Assembly: GCA_051013385.1 (NCBI GenBank)
Contig: CP143274.1
Location: forward strand, 27,157 to 51,156
Direction of reading: 5' to 3'
DNA from: Phormidium sp.
GTDB taxonomy: Bacteria; Cyanobacteriota; Cyanobacteriia; Cyanobacteriales; Aerosakkonemataceae
DNA length: 24,000 bases
Positions 2,364 to 24,000 of the stretch are shown one piece after another. Position numbers and translations under genes: made by a program. The first letter of the stretch is position 1; every line of letters begins with the position of its first letter. Below the pieces are notes generated by a model that worked only from the letters and a program-made list of their open reading frames with translations, ran no database searches and had not been told where the DNA came from.

Positions 2364-5300
2364 ATGCTTAGTGCCATTATTAAATGGGCGATCGCTCGTC
2401 GCTGGTTAGTCATCCTCGGTGCAATTATCGTCACCTTTTGGATTTTTCGCACCATCATCCAGATGCCTCTGGATGTCTTTCCCAGCTTTGCACCTCCCCA
2501 AGTCGAAATTCAAACTGAAGCCCCCGGACTCGCTCCCGAAGAAGTCGAATCTTTAGTCACCTTACCAATTGAAAGTTCGATTAACGGGACTCCCGGAGTT
2601 ACAGCAGTACGCTCTTCCAGTGCATCAGGAATCTCGGTAGTCAAAATTATATTTAATTGGGGAACCGAGATTTATCAGGCCCGCCAGTTAGTAACAGAGC
2701 GATTGCAACAAGCTCAAAGTAAGCTGCCTGAAGGTGTGGAAACCCCACAAATTTCTCCCACCAGTTCTCCTGTTGGCACCGTATTGCAATACGCCTTTAC
2801 ATCTGAAAGCACTCCTTTAATGGAAGTGCGACGCATAGTTGATTGGCAAGTAACAAACCGCATCTTAGCGGTTCCTGGCGTCAGTCAAGTAGTTGCTTAT
2901 GGTGGCGATATTCGTCAGTATCAAGTATTGATTGACCCAGAGAAGTTGAAAGCCTTTAACGTCACTTTAGATGACATTGTAGAAGCAGCTAAAGCCGCAA
3001 ATGTTAATGCTCCAGGTGGCTATTTAATCACTCCCGACAGAGAAAAGTTAATTCGGGGAATTGGGCGGATTGAATCTATTGAAGAATTACAGCAATCAGT
3101 CATTACTGCCCGCAATGGTACGCCTGTAAAAATCTCTGATATTGCTGATGTACAAATTGGTGCGGCTATCAAACGGGGAGATGGCAGTTTTAACGGTCAA
3201 AAGGCCGTAATTTTGATGATTAACAAACAGCCGCAAGCCGACACTCCCACTGTTACCCGTGCTATTGAAGCAGCAATGGAAGAAGTGAAAGCAGGTTTAC
3301 CCAAAGACATTAAAGTTACCCCAACCTTCCGACAAGAAAATTATATTGATTCTTCGATTGAAAATGTCAGAGAAGCTTTATTTGAAGGCAGCATTATTGT
3401 TGCTATTATTTTAATTCCATTTTTAATGAATTGGCGCAACCTGGCAATTTGCTTAACAGCCCTTCCCTTGTCTTTATTAGTTGGAGTTCTACTTCTAAAT
3501 TGGGTAGGCCAAGGTTTAAATACAATGACTTTGGGAGGGTTAGCGGTAGCCATTGGTTCAGCAGTTGACGATGCCATTGTGGATGCTGAGAATGTCTACC
3601 GCAACCTGCGAGAAAACAAGTACTTACCTAATCCACGTCCAGTTTTAGATGTAGTATTTGATGGCTGTCAAGAGGTAAGAGATTCAGTATTTGGAGCTAC
3701 AGTTATTACCATTGTTGTCTTCGCTCCAGTATTTGCTTTAACGGGGGTAGAAGGAAGCATTTTTATTCCGATGGGGTTGGGTTATATGGCAGCAGTTATT
3801 GCTTCTAGCATCACAGCATTGACGGTGACTCCGGCTTTATGTGCTATTCTTTTGCCTTACGGTAATTTGCCAGAAATAGAACCTTGGGTTGCCAGATTTT
3901 TTAAGCGGCTTTATTATCCTTTGTTAACGTTTTCAATGAAGCTTTCAGGAATTATTTTAGTTATAGCCGCTGCTAGTTTAGTGGCAGCAGTTGTAATAGT
4001 TCCTTCTTTTGGAAGAGTGTTTCTACCAGAGTTTCAAGAGCAAACTTTAGTCAATACTTTAACTCTTTATCCAGGTGTATCTCTAGAAGCTACCAATGCC
4101 GCTGGAGAAGCACTTCAGGCAGCACTTAAAGATGACTCTAGATTTCCTTACGTGCAGTTGCGTTCGGGACGTGCGCCAGGAGATGCGGACGCAGCGGGGG
4201 TGAATTTAGCACACTTGGATATTGAGTTGAGCGATGAAGGGATGAAAGATAGGGAAGGGACGCTGGAAAAGCTGCGAGAAGAGTTTAATAAACTACCAGG
4301 AGTTGCACCGAATATTGGCGGTTTTATTTCTCACCGAATGGATGAAGTCTTGTCTGGAGTTAGGAGTGCCATTGCCGTCAAAATTTTCGGTTCCGAATTA
4401 GAGCAACTTCGCACTATTGGCAGCCAAGTCAATGAAGTGATGAAAACTGTTGAAGGAATTGTAGATTTGCAACTTGAACCCCAAGTTCCAGTCGAACAGA
4501 TACAGATTAAGTTTAACCGTTCTGCTGCTTCTCGATATGGTTTGACAGTTGGAAAACTCTCCGAAATCATTGAAACAGCGCTCAATGGGCGAGTGGTATC
4601 TCAAGTATTAGAAAAACAACAAACTTTCGACTTAGTTGTCTGGTTAAAATCAGATGCCCGTCAAAATCTGGATACCATTCGCAATTTGTTAGTTGATACT
4701 CCTGATGGGATTAAAGTTCCATTAGCACAAGTTGCCACCATTGACAATGGCACGGGGCCTAGCACCATCAACCGAGAAAATGTTTCCCGTTTAATTGTTG
4801 TTTCGGCTAATGCTAGCGGCAGAGATTTGCGCTCTATTGTCAATGAAATTCGGGAAAAAGTGAATCAGCAAGTACAAGTTCCTGCTGGTTACTATATTCA
4901 GTATGCAGGGCAATTTGAGGCCCAAGAAAGAGCAACACAAAACATCCTCCTCTTCAGTGCTATAGCTTTTGTAGCTATTACAGTCATCATGTATCTTTCT
5001 GTCAAATCAAATCCATTCCCTCTACCGCCATGATTATGATTAACTTACCCTTAGCCTTGGTGGGGGGAGTATTTTCAGTGGCGATGACTGGAGGAATTAT
5101 TTCTATCGCCTCTCTAGTCGGCTTTGTTACTCTGTTTGGAGTGGCTACTCGTAACGGGTTGTTGCTAGTAGATAATTACAATACAAAATCTGCTGAAGGA
5201 ATGCCTTTAAAAGACCTTATTATTAAAGGGTCGATGGAACGGCTTAATGCGATTTTGATGACTGCTTTTACCTCGGCTTTAGGCTTAGCACCGTTAGTAG

Positions 5301-5494
5301 TAGAGGGTGGGCCAGGTAAAGAGATTTTGCAACCACTTTCGATAGTCGTGTTGGGTGGATTGTTTACTTCTACGGCATTGACGCTGTTAGTTTTACCGGC
5401 CTTGTATGCCAAATTTGGGAAATTTTTGCTGCCGAAGCGAACTATGCCAGTTGTTGAGGACGAGAGAGCAGTTGGAGCCGTCTTTGAGCGGTAA
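2364..5494 (+). pseudogene. CusA/CzcA-family heavy-metal efflux RND permease, frameshifted (889-aa plus 154-aa ORFs)
   Basis: The two consecutive ORFs 2364..5033 and 5030..5494 together look like one ~1041-aa HME-RND pump. Supporting strings are MLSAIIKWAIARRWLVILGAIIV, AVAIGSAVDDAIVDAENVYRNL and the C-terminal LNAILMTAFTSALGLAPLV. The frame switches at a CAAAT CAAAT tandem duplication (5003-5012). Deleting one copy gives a continuous ...MYLSVKSIPSTAMIMINLPLALVGG.... Confidence 0.85.
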
Positions 5495-11772: not shown

Positions 11773-13698
11773 CTAAAATTTTTCGCTCTTCATATTGGCA
11801 AAATGGTCTTGTAATAGTTTGTGGAAGAATTGATAGCGACCCCCAATTTTTATGATAAATAAGCGTTCTTCTGCATAATGGAGAAAGCGAGCGTAGTTCC
11901 AAGGTATGTAACCATTGCGCCAAAGCAAGAATCGCAACAAAAAATGTTGAAGACAAGCCATTCCACCTGTTAATAGTGCTATCGTTGGTACTACTGTCGC
12001 TCCAGTAATTAGTGTGGAAAAAGCTATTTTATCTGTCAAAATAATTGTTAATCCGAATCCCAAACAACTTATTAGTATAAATATTAATGTGATGCGTGTT
12101 GAATAAAAAATATCTTGATTGGGAGCTTTTCTTTGTTTGATTTCTAGCCGCTCACTCGTGAAAGCTAAATTACCTAACAAAACTAAACTAAATATGCATC
12201 CGAAAATTAATCTGGGAATTAATTGCGTATTTACTCCAAATGCCAAACTTAAAATTAATACACTCACTCCGTAACCTAAAAATAATTTATAGAGCTTTAC
12301 TTGAGGAAATTTAAAAGTCTCAATTGGTGTGATTTGCTTATACAAGTATTTAAAAGGAAATGATGCTACTATAGAGCCGATTACAAGTCCAATAATATCC
12401 GAAAATGACAACTGTTGTGTAATGGTAGGCAAGACGGTGGTTAAAGAAAAGATTAATATAATAATTATTAAAAGAATAATATTATAAATTCTTAAATCAG
12501 TTGGCTTTAACCAATTTGGTTGCATCTTTTCAATTAAAAATTCAGTTTGAGACTCTCTTTGTAACTGTTGCGCTAACCAAATAAGCCAAAGTCTGGTTTG
12601 ATGAGAGCTAGGAAACTTTTGTTTAATGTATGCTTTACTATCAATGTCCCGGCTCAACATTCGTCCTACGTAGCTATCAAGCAAATATTGAATTCGGTCT
12701 TCTACAGACGTTAGCTTCTGCCATTGTTCAAAAGATATTTCTTCATAGGCTAGAATGGAAACATTAAGCAGCAAAGGATTTCTAACTAACGGTAATAGAT
12801 TGGAGTTGTTGCTAATACTTTGCCAAAAGTAGGTATGGCTAATATTAGCTAAGTACTCCTGAAGTTGAGAGTTAGTTAAGGATTTTAAGCTGATGGAGTT
12901 GCTGAGTTCAAGGCGAGTATCATAATTTTCATATTCACCTAAGCGGCTACAAACAACTAGATGTTTAGGACGGTATTCTCCCTTCATTAGCTCGTTAATT
13001 GCCTGCACGCAAAGTTCTTGACGAGTTGATTGTAGTTCATCCAAACCATCCAATAGTGGTATAATTCGTTGATTCTTTAGCCATTCTCCGATCAACCCCT
13101 TTAAGGGTTTAAACTGTAATTCGATTGTAGTTACCAACCAATCAGCTATAGTTTGGCGATCGTCCCTCCAAGATGAAAGGTTGCACACCCAAGGAATTGG
13201 ATAATTAGGATCGGCTTCAGCACGACTAATCAGAGTTTCAGCTAGTTCTAACAGAGTAGTAGTCTTTCCCGCTCCTGGCGCACCCAGGATTAACAATCTA
13301 CCTGCAATTTCTTCTAAGTCAAAGATTTCAATAACGTTAGTATTCGATGGTAAAAGAAAGGGAGGTTTTTCGCCGATCTTAACTTCAGTATTCCAAAGCT
13401 GCTTTACCTGCTGAGGTTGTAACTCCTTAACCAAGTTTATCGGCTCAGTATAAAGTAGAGATTTCTTTAGCCGATCGCTAACCATTTGCTTCATTTCCTC
13501 TAAGAGGAATTGTTCTTTACGCGATCGAACTAAATTGTTTCCTTTTGCAAACTGCTGACCCAGAAAAATATTATTATTATAGATATCGCCGCCTATTTGA
13601 TTAGCATAAACATTTGTTGCATCTACAATACCGCCCGCAAATTGAGAACCTCTTAGGTCATGATTAGAAACTTTTTTAGGATCTGGCGCTTCAGACAT
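11773..13698 (-). CDS. NACHT-family P-loop NTPase with an N-terminal G/N/Q-rich motif and a C-terminal polytopic membrane domain
   Basis: Walker A is LILGAPGAGKTTTLLELA and Walker B is RIIPLLDGLDEL. The C-terminal ~230 aa contain at least 6 hydrophobic helices, including NIILLIIIILIFSLTTVL, IIGLVIGSIVASF, LGYGVSVLILSLAFGV, LIFGCIFSLVLLGNLAF, LIFILISCLGFGLTIIL and TGATVVPTIALLTGGMA. I prefer ATG 13698 (MSEAPDPKKVSNHDLRGSQFAGGIVDA...). The listed GTG 13773 would overlap the upstream gene. Confidence 0.8.
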   Translation of the reverse strand: MSEAPDPKKVSNHDLRGSQFAGGIVDATNVYANQIGGDIYNNNIFLGQQFAKGNNLVRSRKEQFLLEEMKQMVSDRLKKSLLYTEPINLVKELQPQQVKQLWNTEVKIGEKPPFLLPSNTNVIEIFDLEEIAGRLLILGAPGAGKTTTLLELAETLISRAEADPNYPIPWVCNLSSWRDDRQTIADWLVTTIELQFKPLKGLIGEWLKNQRIIPLLDGLDELQSTRQELCVQAINELMKGEYRPKHLVVCSRLGEYENYDTRLELSNSISLKSLTNSQLQEYLANISHTYFWQSISNNSNLLPLVRNPLLLNVSILAYEEISFEQWQKLTSVEDRIQYLLDSYVGRMLSRDIDSKAYIKQKFPSSHQTRLWLIWLAQQLQRESQTEFLIEKMQPNWLKPTDLRIYNIILLIIIILIFSLTTVLPTITQQLSFSDIIGLVIGSIVASFPFKYLYKQITPIETFKFPQVKLYKLFLGYGVSVLILSLAFGVNTQLIPRLIFGCIFSLVLLGNLAFTSERLEIKQRKAPNQDIFYSTRITLIFILISCLGFGLTIILTDKIAFSTLITGATVVPTIALLTGGMACLQHFLLRFLLWRNGYIPWNYARFLHYAEERLFIIKIGGRYQFFHKLLQDHFANMKSEKF

Positions 13699-13744
13699 AC
13701 ATTTAGCAAAAGATTGTAGATAGGTTAATCTAATCTGAAAATCT

Positions 13745-15513
13745 CTAGGGAGCGGGGTTGTCGATGTTACCACCTATGTGTTGGGAATGAACTATCTCGG
13801 CATCTACAATTCCACCAGCTATTTGAGAGTGTTGTAGGTCGTAATTAGAGGATTTAACCACAGCTTTTGCCTCTACAGTGATGGGCTTATTAGCCAATAT
13901 CTTAACAATTTCCGTGAGATTTGCATTTTGCTGACGATGAGTAGCTATCTGTTCATCCTTAGCTTCTAACTGGTATCTATATTTTTCTTCTAAGGCTTTT
14001 AATTGCAGTTCGTATTCTTGCTTGAGGTATTTCTCTATTTCTGCCTTATTTGCATTAAAAGGAACATTAACACGAATGATAAAAGCACCATCATTCTTGT
14101 TTTCAAGAGCTTGAATAGATAGCTCCTCACTACCACACTTAACTTGCAGCTTTTGAAATGAATTAAGGAATGCCTGCCAATCAATGCCGTTACGGAAAAC
14201 TAGATCGACTGTTGCTACTGCTTTTTGGAATAATTTAGTAAACTCTCCTGAAGCAAAGTTTCCACTACTAGGGCGGCGTTCTTGTTCTCTTTCTTGAAGA
14301 TAAACATAGTCACAAATCACTCCATTCAACTGGGTGGTACTATTAATATTCCAATCTTGAATGCAGGCTCCAGTTAATGTTGCTTGCCGAAAGGTACTAC
14401 CCATTACTAGAGCCGTAGATAAATTGGCCTGAGTGAGATTAGCATTACACAAGTTGCATTCTCTAAGATCGGCTTCTGCCAGATTAGCTTTAGCTAGATT
14501 AGTGTTTGCCAATATTGCGTTACTCAAAGATGCTTTCCGAAGGTCTGCTTTACTGAAGTTTGCTCCACTGAGGTCTGCCTCCTCTAGTAAAGTCGCCACA
14601 AGTAAGGATTCAACTAACTGTGCATCTCTGAGATCGGCTTTTGTAAGATACGCCGCTGTGAGGTTAGCTTGATTTAAAGAAGCCAATATAAGGGATGATT
14701 CCCACATTTGTGCGCTAACGAGAATTGCTTCTGTAAGATTAGCTCGATCGAGGTTGCACTTGTTGAGAATTGCCCCCTTCAGGTTGGCTTTGTACAAAAC
14801 GGCATTGCTGAGATTAGCTTGGGTGAGGTTCGTTATAGTAAGGAATGCGCCACTGAGATCTGCTCCTGTTAAGTCTGCTCCTGTTAAGTCTGTCCTTGTC
14901 AAGTTTGCTTGGCGAAAGTTTACTCCACTGAGATTAGCTTCTTGAAGATTAACCAGACAGAGATTTGCTCCACAAAAATTGGCTTCCGTAAAGCGTGCGC
15001 CGCGAAGTTCAGCAATGCTGAGGTTAGCTCCCTGAAAATTTGCTCTGCTAAGGTTAGCTCGATTCAGGATGGCCATTCCTAACTCTGCTCCCCTGAGATC
15101 TGCCTCACTCAAATTAGCTTTCTTGAAGTTAGCATTTCCCATATCTGCTTTCTGGAGATATGCTCCACTGAGATTAGCTTTGCTAAAATCTGCCTCCGTG
15201 AGTTTGGCTTCAGTGAAGTTAGTTTCTTTTAAGTAAGCATTTTGGAAGTTAGTTCTATCAAGGTCTGCTCGACGGAAGTTGGCTCTGCTAAGATTTGCCC
15301 CATTAAACTTTGCCCATTTGACAATAGCCCTGCTAAAATCGATTCCACAGAGGTCTGTATTGCTAATATCAGCACTTTTAAAGTTAGTTCCATCCAAGGA
15401 AGCGCCATTAAGTTTTATCCTACTAAGCTTGGCACTCCGAAAGTCAGCGCCCCTAAGATTAGCATTCGAGAGGTCAGCACCATTTAGGGTGACTATGCCA
15501 AGGTCTGTTTGGC
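13745..15513 (-). CDS. Pentapeptide-repeat protein, main (3') portion; the 5' end is separated by an antisense group II intron
   Basis: There are about 65 consecutive A(D/N)LxX pentads (ANLSRANFRRADLDRTNFQN...). A ~190-aa non-repeat domain follows (CIQDWNINSTTQLNGVICDYVYLQ...). The C-terminus is SSNYDLQHSQIAGGIVDAEIVHSQHIGGNIDNPAP*. Upstream of the listed TTG 15397 the frame stays open and pentapeptide-like (QTDLGIVTLNGADLSNANLRGADFRSAKLSRIKLNGASL) as far as the intron boundary at 15513. Confidence 0.85.
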
Positions 15514-16061
15514 GTGCGATTCGTTGTAGCCGAATCAGTGGAAATAATCCACGAAATAACGCTACTCACAACCGTTTAGAGGTTGTGAAACTCTCAAGAT
15601 GATGAGGGTGCAAGCCCCTCCCATCAGGTAAGGATGTGACTCCCAATCTAGCCACAGCGACCAGACTCGGAATTCTGGAGACTGAAGCTGGCAGTAGGGC
15701 GCAATCAGAGCTTGACCGAAAGCACACTGGCGCTAGGGGAGTTCCCAAGGTGAAACAGAGCCTAAAAAAGCAGCTTAAGGCCGAAACCGGACGGAAAAGA
15801 ATAACCCCCCGGATTTCACTAGAGTAAAAACCCGCTAGCTTATGCTAAAGAGACTAGCCTTACCAAGGGTTTCTAGTAGCTGAAGTGGCTACGCCTAAAG
15901 GAACAAGACAATCACTTGAGGGAACGAAGAAAAACGAATTTAGGGTCTTGGGAAAGGTCGAACCCCAGGTAGGCGAGACGAGACGCAGAAACCCCTAGAT
16001 TCGGGTAGGATTCAGCGTAATTGCTGAAAGGCAATCAGAGTAAACACTACAGGAGTAGAGC

Positions 16062-17564
16062 ATGATTGGGCGCAGTCTTAGTGCTAGCGAATTTTGGAAG
16101 AAATTACCTTGGAAGAAGTTTCGACGTAATCTATTCCGCCTGCAAGTGAGGGTTTACAAAGCTATTAGAGCCAATGACCTGCGTAAAGCTAAGTCATTAA
16201 TGAAGCTAATCCTGAAGGCCAGAGCAGCAAGATTACTGGCAATCCGTCAAGTAACACAACTCAATGCAGGGAAGAAAACCCCCGGTATCGACGGCAAAGC
16301 GTCCCTGACACATCAGGAACGCTTAGAGTTGAGTACACAACTCAAGGGTAATGTTAACACCTGGAGACACCAAGGGCTGAGAGAAATTCCCATACCTAAG
16401 AAAGATGGGTCAACCCGGATACTGAAAGTCCCCACTATAGGCGATAGAGCTTGGCAATGCCTAGTGAAATACGCCATAGAACCTGCACATGAGGCTACAT
16501 TCCATGAAAGAAGCTATGGGTTTAGACCAAGTAGAGCAGCACACGACGCTCAGAAATTCTTGTTTCTAAATCTAAGCTCCAAAGTAAACGGAAACATCAA
16601 GAGAGTCATCGAACTAGATATCGAGAAATGCTTTGACCGAATAAGTCACACCGCCATAATGGACAAACTCATAGCCCCATCGGGCATCCGCAACGGTATT
16701 TTCCGGTGCCTAAAATCAGGAGTCAACCCAGGGTTCCCAGAACAGGGAACGCCCCAAGGCGGAGTAGTTAGCCCACTGCTAGCGAACATTGCATTAAACG
16801 GTATCGAAAAGATACACCAATCAATAAGATACGCCGACGATATGGTATTCATACTGAAACCAAAAGATGACGCTCAAAAGATACTTGAGGAAATCAGTCA
16901 GTTCCTTGCTCAAAGAGGTATGAAGATTAGTGAAAAGAAGACAAAAATAACCGCAGCGACAGATGGATTTGACTTTCTAGGATGGCACTTCAAAGTGCAA
17001 AAGAACGGAAAGTTTCGGAGTCAGCCTTCAACGGAAAACTTCAAAAAGTTCCGAGGTAAAGTCAAGAAAATCGTCAATAACTCGAATTATGGGGCAAAGG
17101 TAAAAGCCGAAAAGCTTGCACCTATTGTCAGAGGTTGGAGAAACTACCACCAGTTCTGTAAGTTGGATGGCAACAGATTCAGTTTATCGTCACTCCGCGA
17201 AAGAACTTGGCGAGTATTCAACAAAGAAAAGAAGCTTAACCGATACCAGGTAAAAGAACTGGTCAACAAAGCATTCCCGGCTGTCCCCTACCACGAAAAC
17301 AAATTCATAAATGTGAAAGGGGGTAAGTCACCTTTCGATGGCGATATCCTGTACTGGGCAAAGCGTAACAGCAATTTATACGACGGTACAACCTCAAAGA
17401 TGCTCAAAAAGCAGAACCATACTTGTGGACATTGTGGGCTTCTCTTTATCGGAGAAGAAAAGGTGCATCTACACCACATCGACGGTAATCATAGCAACGG
17501 GAAGGCTAACAATCTGATGGTTGTCCACGAAAGCTGTCACGACTACATCCACATGAGCAATTAA
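16062..17564 (+). CDS. Group II intron reverse transcriptase/maturase with a C-terminal HNH endonuclease domain
   Basis: RT blocks are TPGIDGKASL, IPIPKKDGSTRILKVPTIGDRAWQ, SYGFRPSRAAHDA, IELDIEKCFDRISH, GTPQGGVVSPLLANIAL and the YADD motif (IRYADDMVFI). The maturase X region has GWRNYH. The HNH region is CGHCG...HLHHIDGNHSNGKANNLMVVHESCHDYIH. Confidence 0.95.
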   Translation: MIGRSLSASEFWKKLPWKKFRRNLFRLQVRVYKAIRANDLRKAKSLMKLILKARAARLLAIRQVTQLNAGKKTPGIDGKASLTHQERLELSTQLKGNVNTWRHQGLREIPIPKKDGSTRILKVPTIGDRAWQCLVKYAIEPAHEATFHERSYGFRPSRAAHDAQKFLFLNLSSKVNGNIKRVIELDIEKCFDRISHTAIMDKLIAPSGIRNGIFRCLKSGVNPGFPEQGTPQGGVVSPLLANIALNGIEKIHQSIRYADDMVFILKPKDDAQKILEEISQFLAQRGMKISEKKTKITAATDGFDFLGWHFKVQKNGKFRSQPSTENFKKFRGKVKKIVNNSNYGAKVKAEKLAPIVRGWRNYHQFCKLDGNRFSLSSLRERTWRVFNKEKKLNRYQVKELVNKAFPAVPYHENKFINVKGGKSPFDGDILYWAKRNSNLYDGTTSKMLKKQNHTCGHCGLLFIGEEKVHLHHIDGNHSNGKANNLMVVHESCHDYIHMSN

Positions 17565-17573
17565 GATTGTCGG

Positions 17574-17607
17574 GAGCCGGGTGCGGTGAAAGTCGCACGC
17601 CCGGAGC
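17574..17607 (+). ncRNA. Group II intron domain V-like hairpin
   Basis: GAGCCGGGUGCGGUGAAAGUCGCACGCCCGGAGC has the AGC triad, a GAAA tetraloop and a 2-nt AC bulge in the canonical places. In my hand fold, two basal pairs (A2/G33 and G3/A32) are non-Watson-Crick. Confidence 0.7.
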
Positions 17608-17650
17608 TAAATGAGAGGGGCGAGGAATAATACCCTCCCTCGACTCAACC

Positions 17651-17789
17651 TAAAGTCAATGCCGCGTAGGTTTAGATTGCTAAAGTCTGCTCCGCAAAGT
17701 TCGGGTTTAATTTCAGGATTGTTTAACCGCCACTCATTCCAAACCTCTATCCCCTGCTTGAGCAGAGCGAGATGTTTCTCATTGATCAT
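17651..17789 (-). pseudogene. 5' segment (46 codons plus 1 nt) of the pentapeptide-repeat gene, cut off by the intron
   Basis: ATG 17789 gives MINEKHLALLKQGIEVWNEWRLNNPEIKPELCGADFSNLNLRGIDF, a typical N-terminus of cyanobacterial pentapeptide proteins. The rest of the listed ORF (RLSRGRVLFLAPLI) is read-through into antisense intron sequence. Confidence 0.75.
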
Positions 17790-17835
17790 CTTATTGCACC
17801 AAAACTTAAGTTTGTTTCGTCTACAAATAAGATGA

Positions 17836-18010
17836 TTACTTGCCTTCTTTCCAACCTTCTAAACTTGCTATAAGGATATTAACTAAAGGATGGTTAATCA
17901 ACTCTTTAAAAGCTTCAATACTCCCTGCTTTTAGCGCTCTAACTACTCGCGCCTTGAGAGATGGATTACTCTCAATTTGCTCGATCGCTTCCGTTACAAC
18001 TGTCTGTTTC
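17836..18010 (-). pseudogene. 3' segment of the IS-split gene (C-terminal helical tail)
   Basis: The minus-strand translation from 18003 is TVVTEAIEQIESNPSLKARVVRALKAGSIEAFKELINHPLVNILIASLEGWKEGK*, with the stop at 17836-17838. It continues ...NTQEEKQT from 19341 in frame once the IS and one target-duplication copy are removed. Confidence 0.75.
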
Positions 18011-19340
18011 TTCAGGGGGCGACAACGAAGCTAGAGAGGTTGCTGGATCAGGGTTATAGCTCTCACACCTCGTTGATAAAATGATTTTTTATTGGGCGTA
18101 TAATTAAGCATTTCTTCTACCCATAACTGGCAGGAGTAAAAAGCGATTAGCCAATTTTCTCCATAAAGACCAATCCAAAAGTTGCTATGTCTCCTTCTAG
18201 TTCTACCGGGTTCTGTGAGACGACAGACATATTTTTGTTGCCCTTGTAGCTTAGTTCTTTTGCCTTGTAACCAAGCGGAAGTCATCGCCAAAGCAATTAA
18301 TAATATCAGGCTAATTAATCTATTAGGTGATGCTTGAGAAGCTTCCAGATTATAACCACCTGTTTTACAATCTTTAAACATAGCTTCGATGCCATAACGT
18401 TGACTATAAACACGAGTTGCACTTTTTAAATCCGGGAAATTAGTCAATAAATACCAAGGTTCTGATTCTTGTTTACTTTTATATCTTCTTTTCCAGGAAA
18501 CGGCTAAATTAAACCGATTAAAACCCTTCTTTTGCGTGAAACTAATATGCTCGTAGAATAAATGAATACCTGGTTGAATCGGGATACTGCTTAAAGGTTG
18601 GAATTTCTGTCTATAGGAGCGAAAAGTTGTGGTGCATTTTTGTCGAAGTACGAAGCCAAGATGCTGACGGTGCAGCCATTGCGCCAGTTCTATACTCTGA
18701 AACTCTCTATCCCCAATAATCACTAATTTATATTTACTTAATAATCGGATTACTGGACGTAATACTTGTTTTTGTTCAATTAAATTACAGGCTCCTTTTT
18801 TATCTAACAACATCCAAAATATGGGAAAAGCTCTTTTTTGATGAATCGCACTTACCATTAAAACATTATTTTTTTTCCATTGGGTTCTATCTAAAGCGAT
18901 AATTAGTTGACTCCCTGGTTTGATTTGACGAGATATCACTTCTTTAATAATCGGAAACCACAGCGCCAATACGCTTAATTTACTTAGGGCTAAAAATCGT
19001 TGAATATGACGACGGCGACTATTTTCTAGGATTGGTAATGGCAGGGTTGCTGCCAGTCTTTCTATCCTTACCTGCTTTTGAGATTGCAACAACCATACCA
19101 GCATCTTCAAGGTGATTAACTGTGCTGGCTTCAGATATCTTTCCAGATATTTTTGATAAAATGATGGCATCATTTTGAATGGGTCTTGTGAAATTAACTA
19201 GACCTTTCCTTATTTATCACAATTCAGGGCTTTTTTCTCTACGAGGAGCTTGTTGTCAATAAGCAGGGAATTTCTCGACCAGGTTTGTGCCGCAAAACCC
19301 TTTCCCTATATTGGTTTGGGGGCGCTTGTCGCCCCCTGAA
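18011..19340 (-). mobile_element. IS4-family insertion sequence, 1330 bp, complete
   Basis: Perfect 15-bp terminal inverted repeats: TTCAGGGGGCGACAA (18011-18025) and TTGTCGCCCCCTGAA (19326-19340). They are flanked by the 9-bp direct duplication GTCTGTTTC (18002-18010 and 19341-19349). A single transposase ORF lies inside. Confidence 0.9.
18031..19173 (-). CDS. IS4-family DDE transposase
   Basis: 380 aa. Candidate DDE residues lie in LIIALDRTQW, LVIIGDREF and YGIEAMFKDCK. YSQRYGIEAMFKDCK fits the IS4 Y-(2)-R-(3)-E-(6)-K signature. Confidence 0.85.
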   Translation of the reverse strand: MMPSFYQKYLERYLKPAQLITLKMLVWLLQSQKQVRIERLAATLPLPILENSRRRHIQRFLALSKLSVLALWFPIIKEVISRQIKPGSQLIIALDRTQWKKNNVLMVSAIHQKRAFPIFWMLLDKKGACNLIEQKQVLRPVIRLLSKYKLVIIGDREFQSIELAQWLHRQHLGFVLRQKCTTTFRSYRQKFQPLSSIPIQPGIHLFYEHISFTQKKGFNRFNLAVSWKRRYKSKQESEPWYLLTNFPDLKSATRVYSQRYGIEAMFKDCKTGGYNLEASQASPNRLISLILLIALAMTSAWLQGKRTKLQGQQKYVCRLTEPGRTRRRHSNFWIGLYGENWLIAFYSCQLWVEEMLNYTPNKKSFYQRGVRAITLIQQPL

Positions 19341-20212
19341 GTCTGTTTCTCTTCCTGGGTATTGGTCGGATACGTTTGCTCTAGTTGTTGCAATAGCTGC
19401 TGAATTTCTGCTGCGGCTTCAACTAAGTTTTGTCTTTGTTCGGGTGCGTAGTTGTTTATGTTACCGCCTATCTGCTGCGCGTGGACTGTCTCAGCATCTA
19501 CAATCCCTCCAGCAATTTGGGCATTTTGTAGATTAAAAGTTGAGGACTTTTTTGATTCTTGTGACATCATAATCTCCTTTTCGTTTATAATTCTAGCTAT
19601 TTTATCTGCTTTGACTTCTCCTTGGTTAACCCCAACCCCTATAGAAGATTTACTTTGATCGATGTTTGTTTCACTCACGGTTGCTCCCATATTGTTACCA
19701 TAATTATTACCGTAAATATGAATAGTTACCTTAGCATTTTCATCTTCCCCTAAACCTATTTGTAATTGAGCTAGATAGTTTTCAATATAATAAATAAATG
19801 GCTTAACCACATTATGATTAAATTTATTGACTTGCTCCTTTCGGTTTCCATTAAAAAAGTTTTCTACAGAGGCAGCTAACTCCCAATAACCGAGTTCGCT
19901 TTGGTAAAATTTTTGTAATCCATACTTAAGAAGTTGATATATAAAGCTTATTTCATCTGCTGCTGATTCATCAGGAATTTTAAATCCTGGCTTTAATGAA
20001 TTGTAAGCGCATATATATGAAATATCAAATTCTTTATTAGGGTTTTTTTGAATAAAAGAACTAATTACTAAATCGTTATCAATAAAACTAATAAACCTTT
20101 TGAGATTACTCATCCCAGTATCGGGTAATGATTGCATCAGACGGTTTCCATACATCCTAAAGTCAGATGATATTTTTCTTAATTCGTTTTTACTGATTTT
20201 TAGTTCATCCAT
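19256..20212 (-). CDS. Unknown protein carrying the shared G/N/Q motif, disrupted by the IS (native sequence only to 19341)
   Basis: A ~220-aa N-terminal domain with no motif I recognise is followed by SSTFNLQNAQIAGGIVDAETVHAQQIGGNINNYAPEQRQNLVEAAAEIQQLLQQLEQTYPTNTQEEKQT. The last 27 codons (SGGDKRPQ...FPAY*) are read from the IS end. Confidence 0.7.
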   Translation of the reverse strand: MDELKISKNELRKISSDFRMYGNRLMQSLPDTGMSNLKRFISFIDNDLVISSFIQKNPNKEFDISYICAYNSLKPGFKIPDESAADEISFIYQLLKYGLQKFYQSELGYWELAASVENFFNGNRKEQVNKFNHNVVKPFIYYIENYLAQLQIGLGEDENAKVTIHIYGNNYGNNMGATVSETNIDQSKSSIGVGVNQGEVKADKIARIINEKEIMMSQESKKSSTFNLQNAQIAGGIVDAETVHAQQIGGNINNYAPEQRQNLVEAAAEIQQLLQQLEQTYPTNTQEEKQTSGGDKRPQTNIGKGFCGTNLVEKFPAY

Positions 20213-20213
20213 A

Positions 20214-20663
20214 TTACCTTACTCCACAACAGGGACAATAAATACCTATTACCTTGTTCAAGAACCTAGTCTTAGCAGTTATTTGGCAGCAATTAAGATT
20301 AACTGTCTCTAGTTCTTCCTGTTCAAATAAAATTTTCTGTACTTCCATTTTTAGGGGTTTATCAGCCTTAAACTTTACATTTTTACTTCCTTTGAAGTTT
20401 CTCTCCAATTTTTTAACCCATTCGTTAATCATTGACTTGGCATAATTATTAGCAACAGTGTGAGCTTGTTCGATAACCTCATCTCTTAAAAAATGGCTAT
20501 GTTGATGCCGTAATCCGCAGTAAGGACAAAATATTTCAATAATATCTTCTCTTTCAAAGTCTGTTACTGTCAGTTTAAATCTATCCTCACAAAAAGGACA
20601 TTGGAGCGTAACAAACCCGTCGTTATCGCTGGGGATGGTTATTTGAAAAACTACGTCAGCCAT
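20214..20663 (-). CDS. Double zinc-ribbon-like small protein, function unknown
   Basis: 149 aa with Cys pairs CPFC...CPYC (N-terminal half) and CC...CPCC (C-terminal end). Its stop is 1 nt from the ATG of the next gene, which suggests co-translation. Confidence 0.6.
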   Translation of the reverse strand: MADVVFQITIPSDNDGFVTLQCPFCEDRFKLTVTDFEREDIIEIFCPYCGLRHQHSHFLRDEVIEQAHTVANNYAKSMINEWVKKLERNFKGSKNVKFKADKPLKMEVQKILFEQEELETVNLNCCQITAKTRFLNKVIGIYCPCCGVR

Positions 20664-20761: not shown

Positions 20762-20995
20762 TTAGTGCTTGGTATCTTTTGGCGGACAAGAATCGTTGCC
20801 GTAGCTATCTTTATCCCGGATTTTTCCATCTCTTCCGTGTATTACAACCTCCGTATGCTGGTTTTTGGCAATTTCTTTGGCCTTATCAATCGCTTCCTTT
20901 TGGGTAGCACATACTTTTGTCGCTTTAGTAGCGCCTTCTGATTTAACTTGCCATCCTTCGGGATGCGGGGTAACGTGTTGTGCTTTTTTAGCCAT
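20762..20995 (-). CDS. DUF2188-like small protein
   Basis: MAKKAQHVTPHPEGWQVKSEGATKATKVCATQKEAIDKAKEIAKNQHTEVVIHGRDGKIRDKDSYGNDSCPPKD matches the pattern I recall for DUF2188 (HV.P...GW.VK.EGa.ra......eAi..A...A......e..IHgrDG.Ir..dSYGnDp.PPkD). I prefer the ATG at 20995 over 21016. Confidence 0.6.
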   Translation of the reverse strand: MAKKAQHVTPHPEGWQVKSEGATKATKVCATQKEAIDKAKEIAKNQHTEVVIHGRDGKIRDKDSYGNDSCPPKDTKH

Positions 20996-21148
20996 AACCC
21001 TTTTGTATTGGTACATTTTGAGGCTAGCACAACGTTTTATAAGGTGTACGTTATAAAGTAGGTAAAATATTAAATATTTGTTAAAATATTAGATAAATGG
21101 GTGTATGTTACTAAACGATCGAGATCGCTACTACTAAGCGCTAGCACT

Positions 21149-21643
21149 ATGGACGGCTTTACTCGTCAGGAAACCTTGGCTCTCTGCGGAACTACATCCA
21201 GTCGTCTTGCCTACTTAGACAGGACGAAAGTCGTTGTGCCTCAAAAATACGGCAATCTTAAGAAACCAACGGTGATTTACACTTGGGAGCAAGTTTTAGA
21301 GATTCGGGCGATTAGTCATCTAAGAGAAAAAATATCTCTACAGACGGTCAGAAAAATTATTCAATTCTTAAATGATAGTGGATTTGAAGAAAGCCTTAGA
21401 GATAAGCATTTGGTTGTAGTCAATGATGAAGTCTATTGGGTAATGCCTGATTGGTCTGATATGCCCCGCGTGATGAAGGTTGCTGATAAAAAAAATAAAG
21501 AAAATGGACAATTTGTATTGATTGTTATCCCCCAGCTATCATGCCTTATTAAGGACGTTTGGAATGCTGCTAAAAAGTCTAATATTGTGGACTTTGAAAG
21601 TTTTAAACAGAGAGCTAAAGCCAAACCAACTAAAGCAGCGTAA
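21149..21643 (+). CDS. Putative MerR-like HTH protein, function unknown
   Basis: From ATG 21149, MDGFTRQETLALCGTTSSRLAYLDRTKVVVPQKYGN..KPTVIYTWEQVLEIRAISHLREKISLQTVRKIIQFL follows the MerR N-terminal HTH and wing spacing. The C-terminal half is unrecognised. It is divergent from the DUF2188-like gene across an AT-rich spacer. Confidence 0.4.
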   Translation: MDGFTRQETLALCGTTSSRLAYLDRTKVVVPQKYGNLKKPTVIYTWEQVLEIRAISHLREKISLQTVRKIIQFLNDSGFEESLRDKHLVVVNDEVYWVMPDWSDMPRVMKVADKKNKENGQFVLIVIPQLSCLIKDVWNAAKKSNIVDFESFKQRAKAKPTKAA

Positions 21644-22011: not shown

Positions 22012-23889
22012 TTAAAAGCATTTTAAGAAAGCGTCTATCTCAATTTCATTGAATGGTAAAAGCAATGTTGATTGGATAAAATCTCTAGTTTCACGCTTGA
22101 CATAACATGGCGATTGAAGGCAATCTAACAACAATTTATTAGCGTAGCAATATGCTCGTAACATTCCCCATTCTTGCTCGGTATCTAATTGCCAATCATA
22201 ATCAATATTGCGATATTTACGATTCAAGCCTTTAAGCTTATCACCCCAAGCACCACTATCATGCTTATACCAATGGTAATTTTCATCCCAATGATCGTAA
22301 ACCCCTTCTGGCAATTCTTCATCTAGGTTGATAAGTTCTTTCTGAAAATCTTGATTATCAGTCAATGCTATGGCTGAATATAACGCATCAGATAAGGTGT
22401 AAAAATTAGTATCGTCAATCGGATGCTTGTTATACATTTCATCAATTTCATAATCCTCATCTCCTTCATAAAGGCTAATAGATGTAAATTCCTCATTTTG
22501 AGGATTCTTGTTAGCAATGCGATTTAACAAAGATGCTTGAGCGCGAGCATGAGCCAAATTAAGGTCTAAAGCTAGATTTGGATCGTCAAGAGAAGCACGG
22601 AAATTTCCCATACCAAATCCTGAAGCACATCCTTCATAAAAACTTAACTGAATATGGGAATCTAAAGATTGTAATAGATCGCTCATCTCTAAAAATTCCC
22701 AAGTTGAATCGAGAGGAGAGTTTGTATTATCTAATATGTAGATACCCACAGCTAAACAAATGTAAAATGCTCTAATTGCATTAGGCTGATGAGAGCTAGA
22801 TATTTGACGAGACTTTTGACTAGCCCAAGTTAACAATTCTTGAATGGTTCTATTCTGTGCGGCGGCTAGATCGATTTGATATTTCATTGATAGCAAAAGC
22901 ACATCAGCACTTCTTAGCATCTCAGTAGTTAGCAAGAAAACTTCACGCCATTGTTTATAAAAAGCGTATTGGATTAAATTATTCAGAGCCGAATCGTTGA
23001 ATTCATTTGGATTAGCTTTTGATACAATCTCTTTGGCAGCGAAATACTCGTGAAAGGTTAAATGAGAAAATGAATAAACTTCTCTAGCTCGTTCTACTAA
23101 TAACCCATGCTGTGCCTCAATAGATTTTAATACAGCTTCGCTATCTAGCAATAAAGCTTCTGGAACTTGAGAAGATTCTGTCAAGTTCTTAATATAAGAA
23201 GCAATATATTCCTGCACATCCTGTTGTTTCCAAAAATGTTCCCCCTTCTCAAAAGTTGTTAAAGCTAAATAACTAAGTAAATCTTCTTTGCGCGGTACAG
23301 AGAGATGTTTATAAGCGTTATCACGTTCAATAATACGAGTAGCATCCCATTTCCTTAGAAGTGTATGAGTTGCCCTTTTGTATAACTCAGCACGACTATT
23401 AGGAAAGTCTCCAGCATCTTCAAATTCAATACATAACAAAGTTAACAGTAGTGGGTTATTAGCAAGTTCCTCGATTGATTTGTTCTTTTGGAGGTGTTCC
23501 ATAAACCGTTGGTCAGAATTACAGATATTATTTTTATATGAAAACCACTTACTGACAAAGGTTTGGATTTGTTCTCGATCAAAATCAGCAACTTCTACAT
23601 CTGTAAAATGCTCAAATGTATATTCCTTAGCTGCGATTCGGCAAGTCAGAATAAATTTGTTATTAGGAAACCTTTGAGAAATATCACGGATTTCTTTTAA
23701 GACGTGGCGATCGTATTCTTGCCGAACCTCATCCAATCCATCAAGCAATAATAGTATTCGTCCTAGCTCAAATAACCGAACTATTTGGTTATTGTCAATG
23801 TGGTTATTAGATAATTCCTTACCAATGTAATCGAGTAAACCTACAGCGCTTTGCGCTGTTATGAGGTACGATAAAATATCATTTTGTAG
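22012..23889 (-). pseudogene. Second NACHT-family NTPase, 5'-truncated (Walker A region missing)
   Basis: The minus frame is open from 23889: ...LLDYIGKELSNNHIDNNQIVRLFELGRILLLLDGLDEVRQEY (Walker B), then FILTCRIAAKEY and NNPLLLTLLCIEF. No GxxGxGK(S/T) lies upstream. Instead an oppositely oriented IS630-like transposase gene starts at 23899. Confidence 0.75.
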
Positions 23890-23898
23890 TCAGAGCTA

Positions 23899-24000
23899 AT
23901 GAAAGCATATTCAGTGGAGTTCCGCAAAAGAATAGTGATGGCGCATTTGGTAGAAAAAATATCAATCAGGAAAGTGGCCACCAAATTCGCTGTCAGTAAA
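23899..24000 (+). CDS. IS630/Tc1-mariner-family transposase, N-terminal HTH part (runs off the window)
   Basis: MKAYSVEFRKRIVMAHLVEKISIRKVATKFAVSK resembles the N-terminal HTH of IS630-family transposases (MKAYS.D.R.KI......G.S.R..A..F.VS). The IS end between ~23860 and 23898 could not be placed. Confidence 0.5.
   Translation, partial: MKAYSVEFRKRIVMAHLVEKISIRKVATKFAVSK

Follow-up and report, generated by a model that had tools for sequence, protein, structure and literature searches.

Bacterial NLR-type systems (NLR, nucleotide-binding leucine-rich repeat) have been described in which a short motif or an effector-associated domain (EAD) is common to the N-terminus of the NLR protein and the C-terminal part of the product of an adjacent gene (Dyrka 2020, bioRxiv 10.1101/2020.01.06.895854; Kaur 2020, PMC7159879; Kaur 2021, PMC8195603). 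The Bell-BASS gene pairs of filamentous bacteria are modelled on the fungal HET-S/NWD2 pair, and partners other than Bell, such as TIR and CHAT, have also been reported (Dyrka et al. 2020, bioRxiv 10.1101/2020.01.06.895854). The Bab/Agp pair (BASS11) of E. coli acts by abortive infection and has a proven antiphage function (Ibarlosa et al. 2024, bioRxiv 10.1101/2024.11.07.622273). NACHT proteins bearing transmembrane (TM) regions form a listed class, their TM regions being read as membrane or periplasmic sensors (Kibby et al. 2022, bioRxiv 10.1101/2022.07.19.500537), and the PDC systems are 145 candidates from 'guilt-by-embedding' prediction (Payne et al. 2024, bioRxiv 10.1101/2024.01.29.577857). 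We compared with these systems a four-gene cluster at positions 11773-20663 of a 24,000-nt stretch of the Phormidium sp. contig CP143274.1, the whole of which is referred to as the window. Listing and translation of the open reading frames (ORFs) confirmed four co-directional genes on the minus strand at these coordinates, encoding from the 5' end a zinc-ribbon protein (PDC-M14A), a second protein of the same candidate system (PDC-M14B), a pentapeptide-repeat protein and a NACHT NTPase with six TM helices (NACHT-TM). A preliminary description of the window had proposed the cluster as a candidate four-gene NLR-like conflict system. Its synteny, NACHT domain, motif linkage and conflict-type surroundings all stood, but the cluster, far from being one indivisible unit, brings together two modules that are each found apart in other genomes, the PDC-M14 pair and the pentapeptide/NACHT-TM pair. 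On balance, we consider it probable that the two independently mobile modules make up a composite NLR-type conflict locus acting in phage defence or regulated cell death.

The copy in the window is interrupted by two mobile elements, and subtraction of these leaves spacers of 1, 46 and 46 nt between the four genes, as previously claimed; the two 46-nt spacers have no similarity to each other. The preliminary description had also called for intact orthologous clusters to be sought, and the search was positive. Two relatives, L001 and L004, carry syntenic four-gene clusters free of insertion sequence (IS) and intron, and blastn comparison with the insertion-free loci L001, L004 and L008 confirmed both insertion boundaries of the window together with the same gene order. 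The 19-kb L001 locus begins with a NACHT-NCH2 gene (828 aa) and a 164-aa gene on the other strand, and continues with DUF2188, the zinc-ribbon gene (149 aa), gene 2 (345 aa), the pentapeptide gene (455 aa) and the NACHT gene (641 aa), separated within the cluster by 1, 46 and 47 nt; the two-component system of the window also comes next after the NACHT gene in L001. The repaired 345-aa product of gene 2 is 91-93% identical to its counterparts P0001 and P0002 and 72% identical to P0003. A scan of the intact cluster for promoters and terminators gave no difference from shuffled sequences and is therefore uninformative as to an operon. Gene order and the 46-47-nt spacers are conserved across relatives of 72% to 93% identity, and this conservation bears on an alternative that we regard as unlikely, namely that two unrelated systems lie side by side in a defence island and that the motif in M14B is a recombination by-product without functional coupling. 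Defence genes do cluster without interacting, and each of the two modules is found alone elsewhere, but the conserved order and spacing argue for more than proximity.

The two modules are joined by a motif that the preliminary description had noticed in three of the four products, and we verified this with a hidden Markov model (HMM) built from 71 instances. On the minus strand of the window, the model matched M14B at 19442-19534 (STFNLQNAQIAGGIVDAETVHAQQIGGNINNY; E = 6.5e-18), the C-terminus of the pentapeptide protein at 13757-13846 (SNYDLQHSQIAGGIVDAEIVHSQHIGGNIDNP; E = 4.4e-13) and the N-terminus of the NACHT protein at 13576-13665 (SNHDLRGSQFAGGIVDATNVYANQIGGDIYNN; E = 2.9e-15). The motif is about 30 residues long and rich in G, N and Q, with two GG-centred 14-residue pseudo-repeats (xAQhxGGxhxx), NAQIAGGIVDAETV and HAQQIGGNINNYAP. 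In M14B it lies within a 46-aa insert between a native 'type A' stretch (SSIGVGVNQGEVKADKIAG) and the C-terminal domain (CTD), and in an alignment of 33 M14B proteins this insert was confined to the window lineage (the window and P0001-P0003), the lineage in which M14B lies beside a motif-bearing NACHT. The three local copies have AGGIVDA in common, against GGGFINA in the NACHTs of Nostoc, so that the insert is found only where M14B adjoins a NACHT of the same motif subtype, a pattern that speaks against a recombination by-product. What the alternative of two unrelated systems has in its favor here is the promiscuity of the motif-plus-CTD cassette. The motif, with or without the CTD, was also found on CHAT, restriction endonuclease (DpnII-MboI) and pentapeptide proteins of cyanobacteria; it stands at the N-terminus of TIR and AAA_35 proteins, and the AbiTii protein P0066 has a related type A stretch followed by the CTD. 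A homology of P0066 to the N-domain of M14B was considered and rejected, the alignment being confined to the part with the type A stretch and the CTD.

In AlphaFold2 (AF2) monomer models of M14B and the NACHT protein the motif is unstructured and of low confidence, as would be expected of a templated segment, and a sister cassette of the motif matches the beta-roll family LbR_Ice_bind of Pfam below the cut-off. Together with the composition and the pseudo-repeats, the unstructured models and the sub-threshold match make amyloid-like templating by the motif plausible. The resemblance to Bell-BASS pairs is close in several respects: a G/N/Q-rich motif of about 25-30 aa with internal pseudo-repeats recurs in the C-terminal part of one protein and at the very N-terminus of the NACHT protein encoded by the next co-linear gene, the spacers are short (46 nt here), the hosts are multicellular cyanobacteria, and homologous NACHTs of the same family use BASS8 itself. 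The differences are also clear. The partners in the window are a 635-aa pentapeptide protein and PDC-M14B instead of a Bell protein of about 110-140 aa, the motif lies outside the listed BASS1-10 as far as string matching alone can tell, and many relatives have an 87-aa helical CTD behind the motif, which is thus not terminal. Furthermore, the NACHT protein carries a 6-TM block in place of TPR or WD repeats, and amyloid formation by the motif is putative here. The Bab/Agp pair likewise consists of adjacent genes with a common amyloid motif, which the executioner carries at its C-terminus and the sensor at its N-terminus. The pair differs in that its executioner is a small pore-forming helical domain.

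The string matching was performed against Table S2 of Dyrka 2020. Nine of the 11 motif fragments, including IGGDI, IGGNI, GGGFIN, FGGG and VNAQ, had no instance there, and the only places where the short strings GGNI, FAGG and IAGG turned up were unrelated entries of BASS2, BASS4 and BASS6. BASS8 was seen solely in homologous loci. None of the EAD models matched a window protein at E <= 0.01-0.1.

The first module corresponds to PDC-M14. M14A (20214-20663, minus strand; 149 aa, with the two zinc ribbons CPFC..CPYC and CC..CPCC) matched the PADLOC model PDLC04447 over residues 1-148 of 149 (E = 6.7e-55), and M14B, co-directional and 1 nt away, matched PDLC04449 over residues 5-188 (E = 7e-44). 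Both components of PDC-M14, an M14A match and an adjacent co-directional M14B match covering the full N-domains, are therefore present, with M14B split by the IS in the window. The 5' part of M14B (19349-20212, minus strand; residues 1-288) comprises a helical N-domain, the native G/N-rich type A stretch, the inserted NACHT-type motif and the start of the CTD; the 3' part (17836-18009, minus strand), recovered from the repaired ORF, contains the remainder of the helical CTD, which is about 87 aa long, and the stop. The gene starts at 20212 as an ORF of 318 aa, resumes at 18009 past the IS and ends with the stop at 17836-17838, and removal of the IS with one copy of the target duplication yields 345 aa. 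The expectation that no described system would match the cluster was not borne out by PADLOC, which assigns genes 1 and 2 to the catalogued candidate PDC-M14 and the nearby DUF2188 gene to PDC-S16. The window locus departs from PDC-M14 in the extra NACHT-type motif of M14B and the linkage to a NACHT module, neither of which was seen in the seven other M14 contexts examined.

Across cyanobacteria M14A is 70-79% identical, falling to about 40% in Clostridium and Psychrobacillus, and in the loci examined it always lies directly upstream of M14B. The M14B proteins, including those of Firmicutes, have three parts in common, a helical N-domain, a G/N/Q-rich stretch and a helical CTD of about 87 aa. 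The N-domain family is small (171 clusters among 1.84 billion representatives) and constant in architecture. In several genomes M14A and M14B, overlapping or 1 nt apart, have no pentapeptide or NACHT-TM gene downstream; among cyanobacteria these are a Microcoleus anatoxicus plasmid, Rivularia, where the pair lies beside pPIWI-RE and restriction-modification (RM) genes, and two others, and among Firmicutes they are Psychrobacillus and Clostridium saccharobutylicum, where it lies beside type III/I RM genes. Scans of viral contigs returned one locus for M14B and one for the CTD, and the modules are therefore not typically phage-borne. The sole viral match of the CTD, at 2950-5270 of the IMG/VR contig UViG_3300022536_000055 (L100), consists of a vWA gene followed by a gene for a multi-TM protein of 496 aa, at the end of which are a PKYDLRD-type stretch and the helical CTD (52% identity), and it adjoins a terminase-like gene.

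Remote-homology searches had been recommended earlier for the zinc-ribbon protein and the N-domain of gene 2, and they returned nothing significant: M14A, M14B and a profile of the CTD gave no significant match among PDB sequences, and Pfam, NCBIfam and PHROGs gave sub-threshold noise alone for M14A, the M14B N-domain, the motif and the CTD. In the AF2 model of M14B the N-domain (residues 1-166) has a confidence score (pLDDT) of about 90 and the motif region one below 35. Foldseek comparison of this model with the PDB found no significant fold, the matches being generic helical bundles with a best E = 0.15, and assignment of the N-domain as Bell/HeLo-like was rejected on these values. EACC1 (Kaur 2020) was likewise rejected as an identity for the CTD, EACC1 being a single conserved TM helix of actinobacteria.

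The second module begins with the pentapeptide gene, of which the 5' part (17651-17789, minus strand; residues 1-46 from the ATG at 17789) was assigned by frame continuity and by alignment to the intact L001 and L004 genes. The 3' part (13745-15513, minus strand) contains the repeats, a linker domain and the C-terminal motif. Removal of the intron joins the 46-codon 5' exon to an ORF of 550 aa to give a protein of 635 aa, in which tandem A(D/N)LXX repeats matched Pfam PF00805 with E = 7.9e-83. The estimate of about 65 pentapeptide units holds for the 550-aa ORF; the repaired protein has about 80 units in a single register, equal to 20 coils. The length of the protein varies between near-identical strains (455, 635 and 636 aa). 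The in-frame repeat indels of L001 total 180 aa, made up of one of about 175 aa and a 5-aa gap, and in L004 (9520-9921, against 13733-14150 of the window) the linker/motif end is strongly divergent between flanks that are 94-97% identical. As read from the divergent L004 allele and the L001 indels, these alignments indicate that the gene undergoes rapid diversification or recombination.

The NACHT protein (11773-13698, minus strand; 641 aa) completes the module. A GTG at 13773, the start given in the ORF list, would lie inside the pentapeptide gene, and the ATG at 13698, which yields 641 aa and the 46-nt spacer, is most likely the start; the motif then lies at residues ~10-45, the position it occupies in at least 44 NACHT homologues among the best 120. 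The switch domain was confirmed by Pfam PF05729 (37.2 bits, above the gathering threshold of 26.7) and by intact Walker A (GAPGAGKTT) and Walker B (LLDGLDE) motifs, which place the protein among the signal transduction ATPases with numerous domains (STAND). The predicted membrane domain was also upheld, as a block of six hydrophobic helices at residues 399-594 (11917-12504, minus strand) recognized by hydropathy and by the AF2 helices at 399-427, 432-452, 469-487, 493-511, 528-554 and 559-594. Behind the block is a short C-terminal winged-helix-like segment, a beta-hairpin and a helix with the signature GGRYQFFHKLLQDHFA; to judge from inspection of this segment, the NACHT module seems to have the TM block inserted within its winged-helix region, an arrangement also described for the 'TM regions' class (Kibby et al. 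2022). An hhalign comparison with the neighbouring NACHT-NCH2 protein aligned the nucleotide-binding domain alone and left the TM insertion point uncovered, and a Foldseek search with the AF2 model (pLDDT 59.6) gave weak matches to ORC, AAA+ and NLRC4 and nothing beyond the STAND core. In contrast to a classical NLR, there is no repeat domain C-terminal to the NACHT, the repeats being in the separate upstream protein. We know of no tested bNACHT with this architecture. The protein does agree with the 'TM regions' class of bNACHTs (Kibby 2022) in its multiple TM helices, in its many cyanobacterial paralogues and in its variable N-terminal effector or adaptor slot, and it appears to differ from that class in that the effector function would be supplied in trans through the motif and not by a fused N-terminal enzyme.

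The pairing of the second module was followed in a genome scan for NACHT-TM, to which each species contributed one of 80 loci. In 5 of 78 species loci (L017, L019, L022, where the pair occurs twice, L048 and L072) the gene directly upstream of NACHT-TM is a pentapeptide gene, compared with about 0.4 expected by our rough estimate. All five, from Nostoc and Scytonema, belong with the closest homologues of full length. Three types of motif cassette were distinguished: NLQNAQFxGGxxxAxxVxAxxIGGxIxN in the window and L017, NINTGGGNYNERIEGDYIQGN in L019, L072, L022, L018 and L037, and NVVQGxxNRVVQGDNNxxVLGD in L048. In every typed locus the partner has the motif type of the adjacent NACHT N-terminus, and the types differ between loci. 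In 14 of 76 loci, the cassette match of a neighbouring ORF exceeded the 99th percentile of an unrelated-locus control. Such matching is a general rule in the NACHT-TM family and therefore counts against two unrelated systems in the window. In Nostoc sp. ChiSLP01 (L017, 3139-10692), four consecutive co-directional genes carry the window-type motif. Their products are, in order, pentapeptide-motif-CTD, pentapeptide-motif, motif-NACHT-TM and motif-AAA_35, so that a single set of partners with the motif is common to two different NTPases.

Other occupants were found at the N-terminus of homologous NACHTs. In L028, L047 and L029 (Tychonema, Nostoc and Egbenema, respectively) the NACHT pairs with an upstream protein of about 140 aa through RQYNNYGRDQINIE, which is BASS8 in Table S2 of Dyrka 2020; these NACHTs were assigned to the family by the C-terminal GGRYxFxH signature, with their TM helices unchecked. 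Pfam found nothing in the 140-aa partners, which are presumably Bell-like. The homologues P0144 and P0121 have the Pfam domains EAD1 and EAD10, respectively, at the same position. Since the motif types, BASS8, EAD1 and EAD10 alternate there, the N-terminal 50 or so residues of the NACHT family constitute an exchangeable adaptor slot. These slot occupants, like the gene order, the intact orthologues, the separate modules, the shared motif and the co-variation of cassettes, were established by computation. The EAD-coupled STAND and ternary conflict systems (Kaur 2020, PMC7159879; Kaur 2021, PMC8195603) are similar to this arrangement in the 'EAD principle', by which one small non-catalytic module recurs at the N-terminus of the NTPase and in effectors whose genes lie beside it or elsewhere, in having the most similar copies adjacent, in using pentapeptide repeats in effector positions and, through the homologues just described, in the EADs themselves. 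They differ in that the 12 EADs are folded, mostly alpha-helical and modelled in Pfam, where the window proteins match none of them, and what stands in their place here is a short motif of beta type, behind which a helical CTD may or may not follow.

In the composite locus that we favor, the membrane-embedded NACHT would be the switch and probably the sensor. A trigger would lead the NACHT to oligomerize and bring its N-terminal motifs together, and the clustered motifs would then bind their counterparts in the pentapeptide protein and M14B in a homotypic manner, probably by beta-solenoid or amyloid-like templating. Templating would in turn recruit or activate the pentapeptide protein and M14B (with M14A) as downstream effectors, and the pentapeptide beta-helix may serve as a DNA mimic or a scaffold. 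The two proteins are placed downstream because, in the NLR paradigm, the N-terminal motif or EAD of the NLR recruits the same module on adjacent effectors. Physical contact between the motifs, templating of the amyloid type, the direction in which the signal runs and a function in defence are all inferred.

The direction of signalling could also be the reverse. In such a split NLR, which we hold to be rather improbable, the pentapeptide protein would be the sensor, recognizing an invader (for example, a DNA-binding phage protein) and signalling via the motif, the TM block of the NACHT would be the effector that permeabilizes the membrane, and M14B would be a second input or modulator. Superstructure-forming repeats are the sensors of classical NLRs, and pentapeptide repeats are counted among the sensor repeats (Kibby 2022); the polymorphic repeat number in near-identical strains and the divergent linker/motif allele of L004 would fit the diversification of a sensor, and the preliminary description had itself viewed the TM domain as an output. 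Against this, in all characterized motif- or EAD-coupled systems the N-terminal adaptor of the NLR recruits downstream effectors, and the C-terminal motif of the partner marks the effector. Pentapeptide repeats have been placed in the effector position (Kaur 2020, PMC7159879), the TM regions of NACHTs have been interpreted as sensors (Kibby 2022, bioRxiv 10.1101/2022.07.19.500537), and in the same NACHT family there are pairings with BASS8 proteins that are small, about the size of Bell proteins.

Several observations weigh against the composite locus itself. The complete four-gene arrangement is confined to one narrow clade, and for the 72%-identical L008 the recovered sequence lacks the NACHT end. 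The NACHT is absent beside most M14 pairs, and M14 is therefore independent of the second module. Residue-level motif identity was only marginally higher within loci (0.54) than between loci (0.49; n=9), and it was the matching of cassette types that proved informative. The motif is in neither Pfam nor NCBIfam and was not found among the BASS1-10 pairs by string matching; no Bell/HeLo-like pore-forming partner is present, and the N-domain of M14B is without a significant PDB fold match. Every component is known from sequence alone, PDC-M14 being a guilt-by-embedding candidate. In addition, the cluster is broken both in the window and in Phormidium sp. LEGE 05292, from which it follows that, for some strains at least, selection for it is weak or negative.

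The damage in the window is due to two insertions within the cluster. An IS4-family element (18010-19341, minus strand) splits M14B inside the CTD; it has a transposase ORF at 18031-19173 that matched NCBIfam transpos_IS4_2 (E = 7e-67; 225.9 bits, cut-off 152), perfect 16-bp inverted repeats at 18010-18025 and 19326-19341, and a 7-bp target duplication, TCTGTTT, at 18003-18009 and 19342-19348. The presence of a DDE transposase, terminal inverted repeats and a target-site duplication agrees with the family assignment, and the element is not present in L001, L004 or L008. The pentapeptide gene is split by a group II intron of 2137 nt (15514-17650, plus strand, bounds +/-1 nt), seen by blastn as an insertion at 15513/4-17649/50 relative to L001 and L004. 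Its ORF for reverse transcriptase, maturase and HNH (16062-17564, plus strand) matched Pfam RVT_1, RVT_N and GIIM and TIGR04416, and domain V-VI was found by Rfam RF00029 (Intron_gpII) at 17572-17649 on the same strand (45.2 bits against 40). The boundary is ambiguous by 1 nt, with a C at both ends (15513/15514 and 17649/17650): the canonical 5' end GUGCG leaves a 3' end of ...CAACC, unlike the usual AY, and the alternative bounds give the canonical ...CAAC at the 3' end but CGUGCG at the 5' end. The target site of the IS4 element (18000-18009) contains the 8-mer GTCTGTTT, within and beside the TCTGTTT duplication, and this 8-mer is found again 3 nt upstream of the intron 5' junction (GGTCTGTTTGGC followed by GTGCG; 15500-15513), which may be a coincidence or a common target preference.

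Because the intron is antisense to its host gene, splicing cannot restore the pentapeptide mRNA. Subtraction of the mobile elements, as practised in the preliminary description, yields the correct spacers but masks this orientation of the intron. With M14B split by the IS4 element and the pentapeptide gene by the intron, the cluster of the window is non-functional, a pseudogenized relic that is properly annotated as disrupted genes. The same locus in Phormidium sp. LEGE 05292 (L101, GCA_015207735.1; 3073-10416) has other damage. A deletion there has cost the locus a portion of the MerR-like gene, DUF2188, M14A and some 150 codons at the start of M14B, and an insertion of about 2.4 kb with DDE_5/DDE_Tnp_1 transposase genes splits NACHT-TM into parts of 169 and 471 aa; the pentapeptide gene (635 aa) is uninterrupted. 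A third insertion of the window interrupts the neighbouring NACHT-NCH2 gene at 23843/4, as shown by blastn against intact relatives, and the part of that element within the window (23844-24000) is 89% identical to one end of the LEGE 05292 NACHT-TM insertion.

That mobile elements have inactivated the locus independently in two strains suggests that the system is costly. High cost is typical of regulated cell-death immunity, and repeated inactivation is typical of costly conflict systems. These features have to be set against a non-defence role, for example in developmental or cell-cell signalling of filamentous cyanobacteria with NACHT-TM as a membrane-signalling ATPase, which we consider very improbable. 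Pentapeptide proteins such as HetL function in heterocyst differentiation, and HetL is the best NCBIfam match of the repeats, below the cut-off (213 vs 260 bits). The NACHT-TM family is huge in the multicellular Nostocales, which contain most of its more than 2000 homologues, and a two-component system flanks the locus. On the other hand, the partner domains of the motif and CTD are of the conflict type (TIR, CHAT, REase and AbiTii), M14 occurs beside RM and pPIWI systems, and the variation in presence and absence, the swapping of cassettes and the repeated inactivation are typical of conflict and not of a core developmental function.

The NACHT switch, the TM-bearing NACHT, coupling by motif or EAD and the PDC-M14 candidate are already described. 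In the literature and libraries searched we did not find the motif family with its two sister cassettes, the constant helical CTD, a pentapeptide protein as habitual partner, or a PDC-M14B captured by a NACHT adaptor motif. The statement that the domain combination is not a described system thus survives for the uncatalogued motif, the CTD and the new partners, but not for the organizing principle or for genes 1 and 2. A broader proposal can be advanced tentatively, as possible but short of probable: the motif and its two sister cassettes would be new amyloid or beta-solenoid signals by which one membrane NACHT commands interchangeable effectors in trans, with the CTD as the constant component. 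The effectors could include giant pentapeptide beta-helices and the orphan PDC-M14, and the CTD could be, for example, a polymerization cap or a regulator. If this proposal is true, it would provide the first mechanistic handle on PDC-M14 and would carry bacterial amyloid-type signalling well past Bell-domain executioners. If the coupling in the window locus is real, the PDC-M14 candidate would be tied to NLR-type signalling, giving a concrete hypothesis for the activation of M14B, and the amyloid or adaptor partners of NLRs would extend past Bell domains to pentapeptide-repeat proteins, which are abundant in cyanobacteria and mostly without known function. The three interchangeable cassettes on one pentapeptide/NACHT-TM chassis would then amount to a natural specificity-swap series.

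The flanks of the cluster are of the conflict type, containing PADLOC candidates and a second NACHT. The DUF2188 gene (20762-21016, minus strand; Pfam DUF2188 E = 3.7e-26, PDC-S16 E = 9.6e-38) lies 98 nt upstream of the zinc-ribbon gene and had been proposed as a member of the same unit. It is missing in the otherwise syntenic L008 and is therefore a dispensable neighbour, not an obligate part of the cluster. The divergent gene beyond it (21101-21643, plus strand; 164-180 aa) encodes a weak MerR-like helix-turn-helix (HTH) protein (weak Pfam MerR_1 match; PHROG 31673); it is retained beside the cluster in L001, L004 and L008, and from its predicted domain it may be a regulator of the cluster. 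The second NLR-like gene, with an N-terminal HTH, NACHT and NCH2, is 1.3 kb away (window ORF 22012-23748, minus strand). At the other end of the window an AcrB-type RND transporter gene is preceded by an HlyD-family gene (502-2199) and is split into ORFs of 889 aa (2364-5033, plus strand) and 154 aa (5030-5494, plus strand) with a 4-nt overlap. The two ORFs cover positions 1-890 and 891-1020 of the ACR_tran profile, which suggests a frameshift or a pseudogene.

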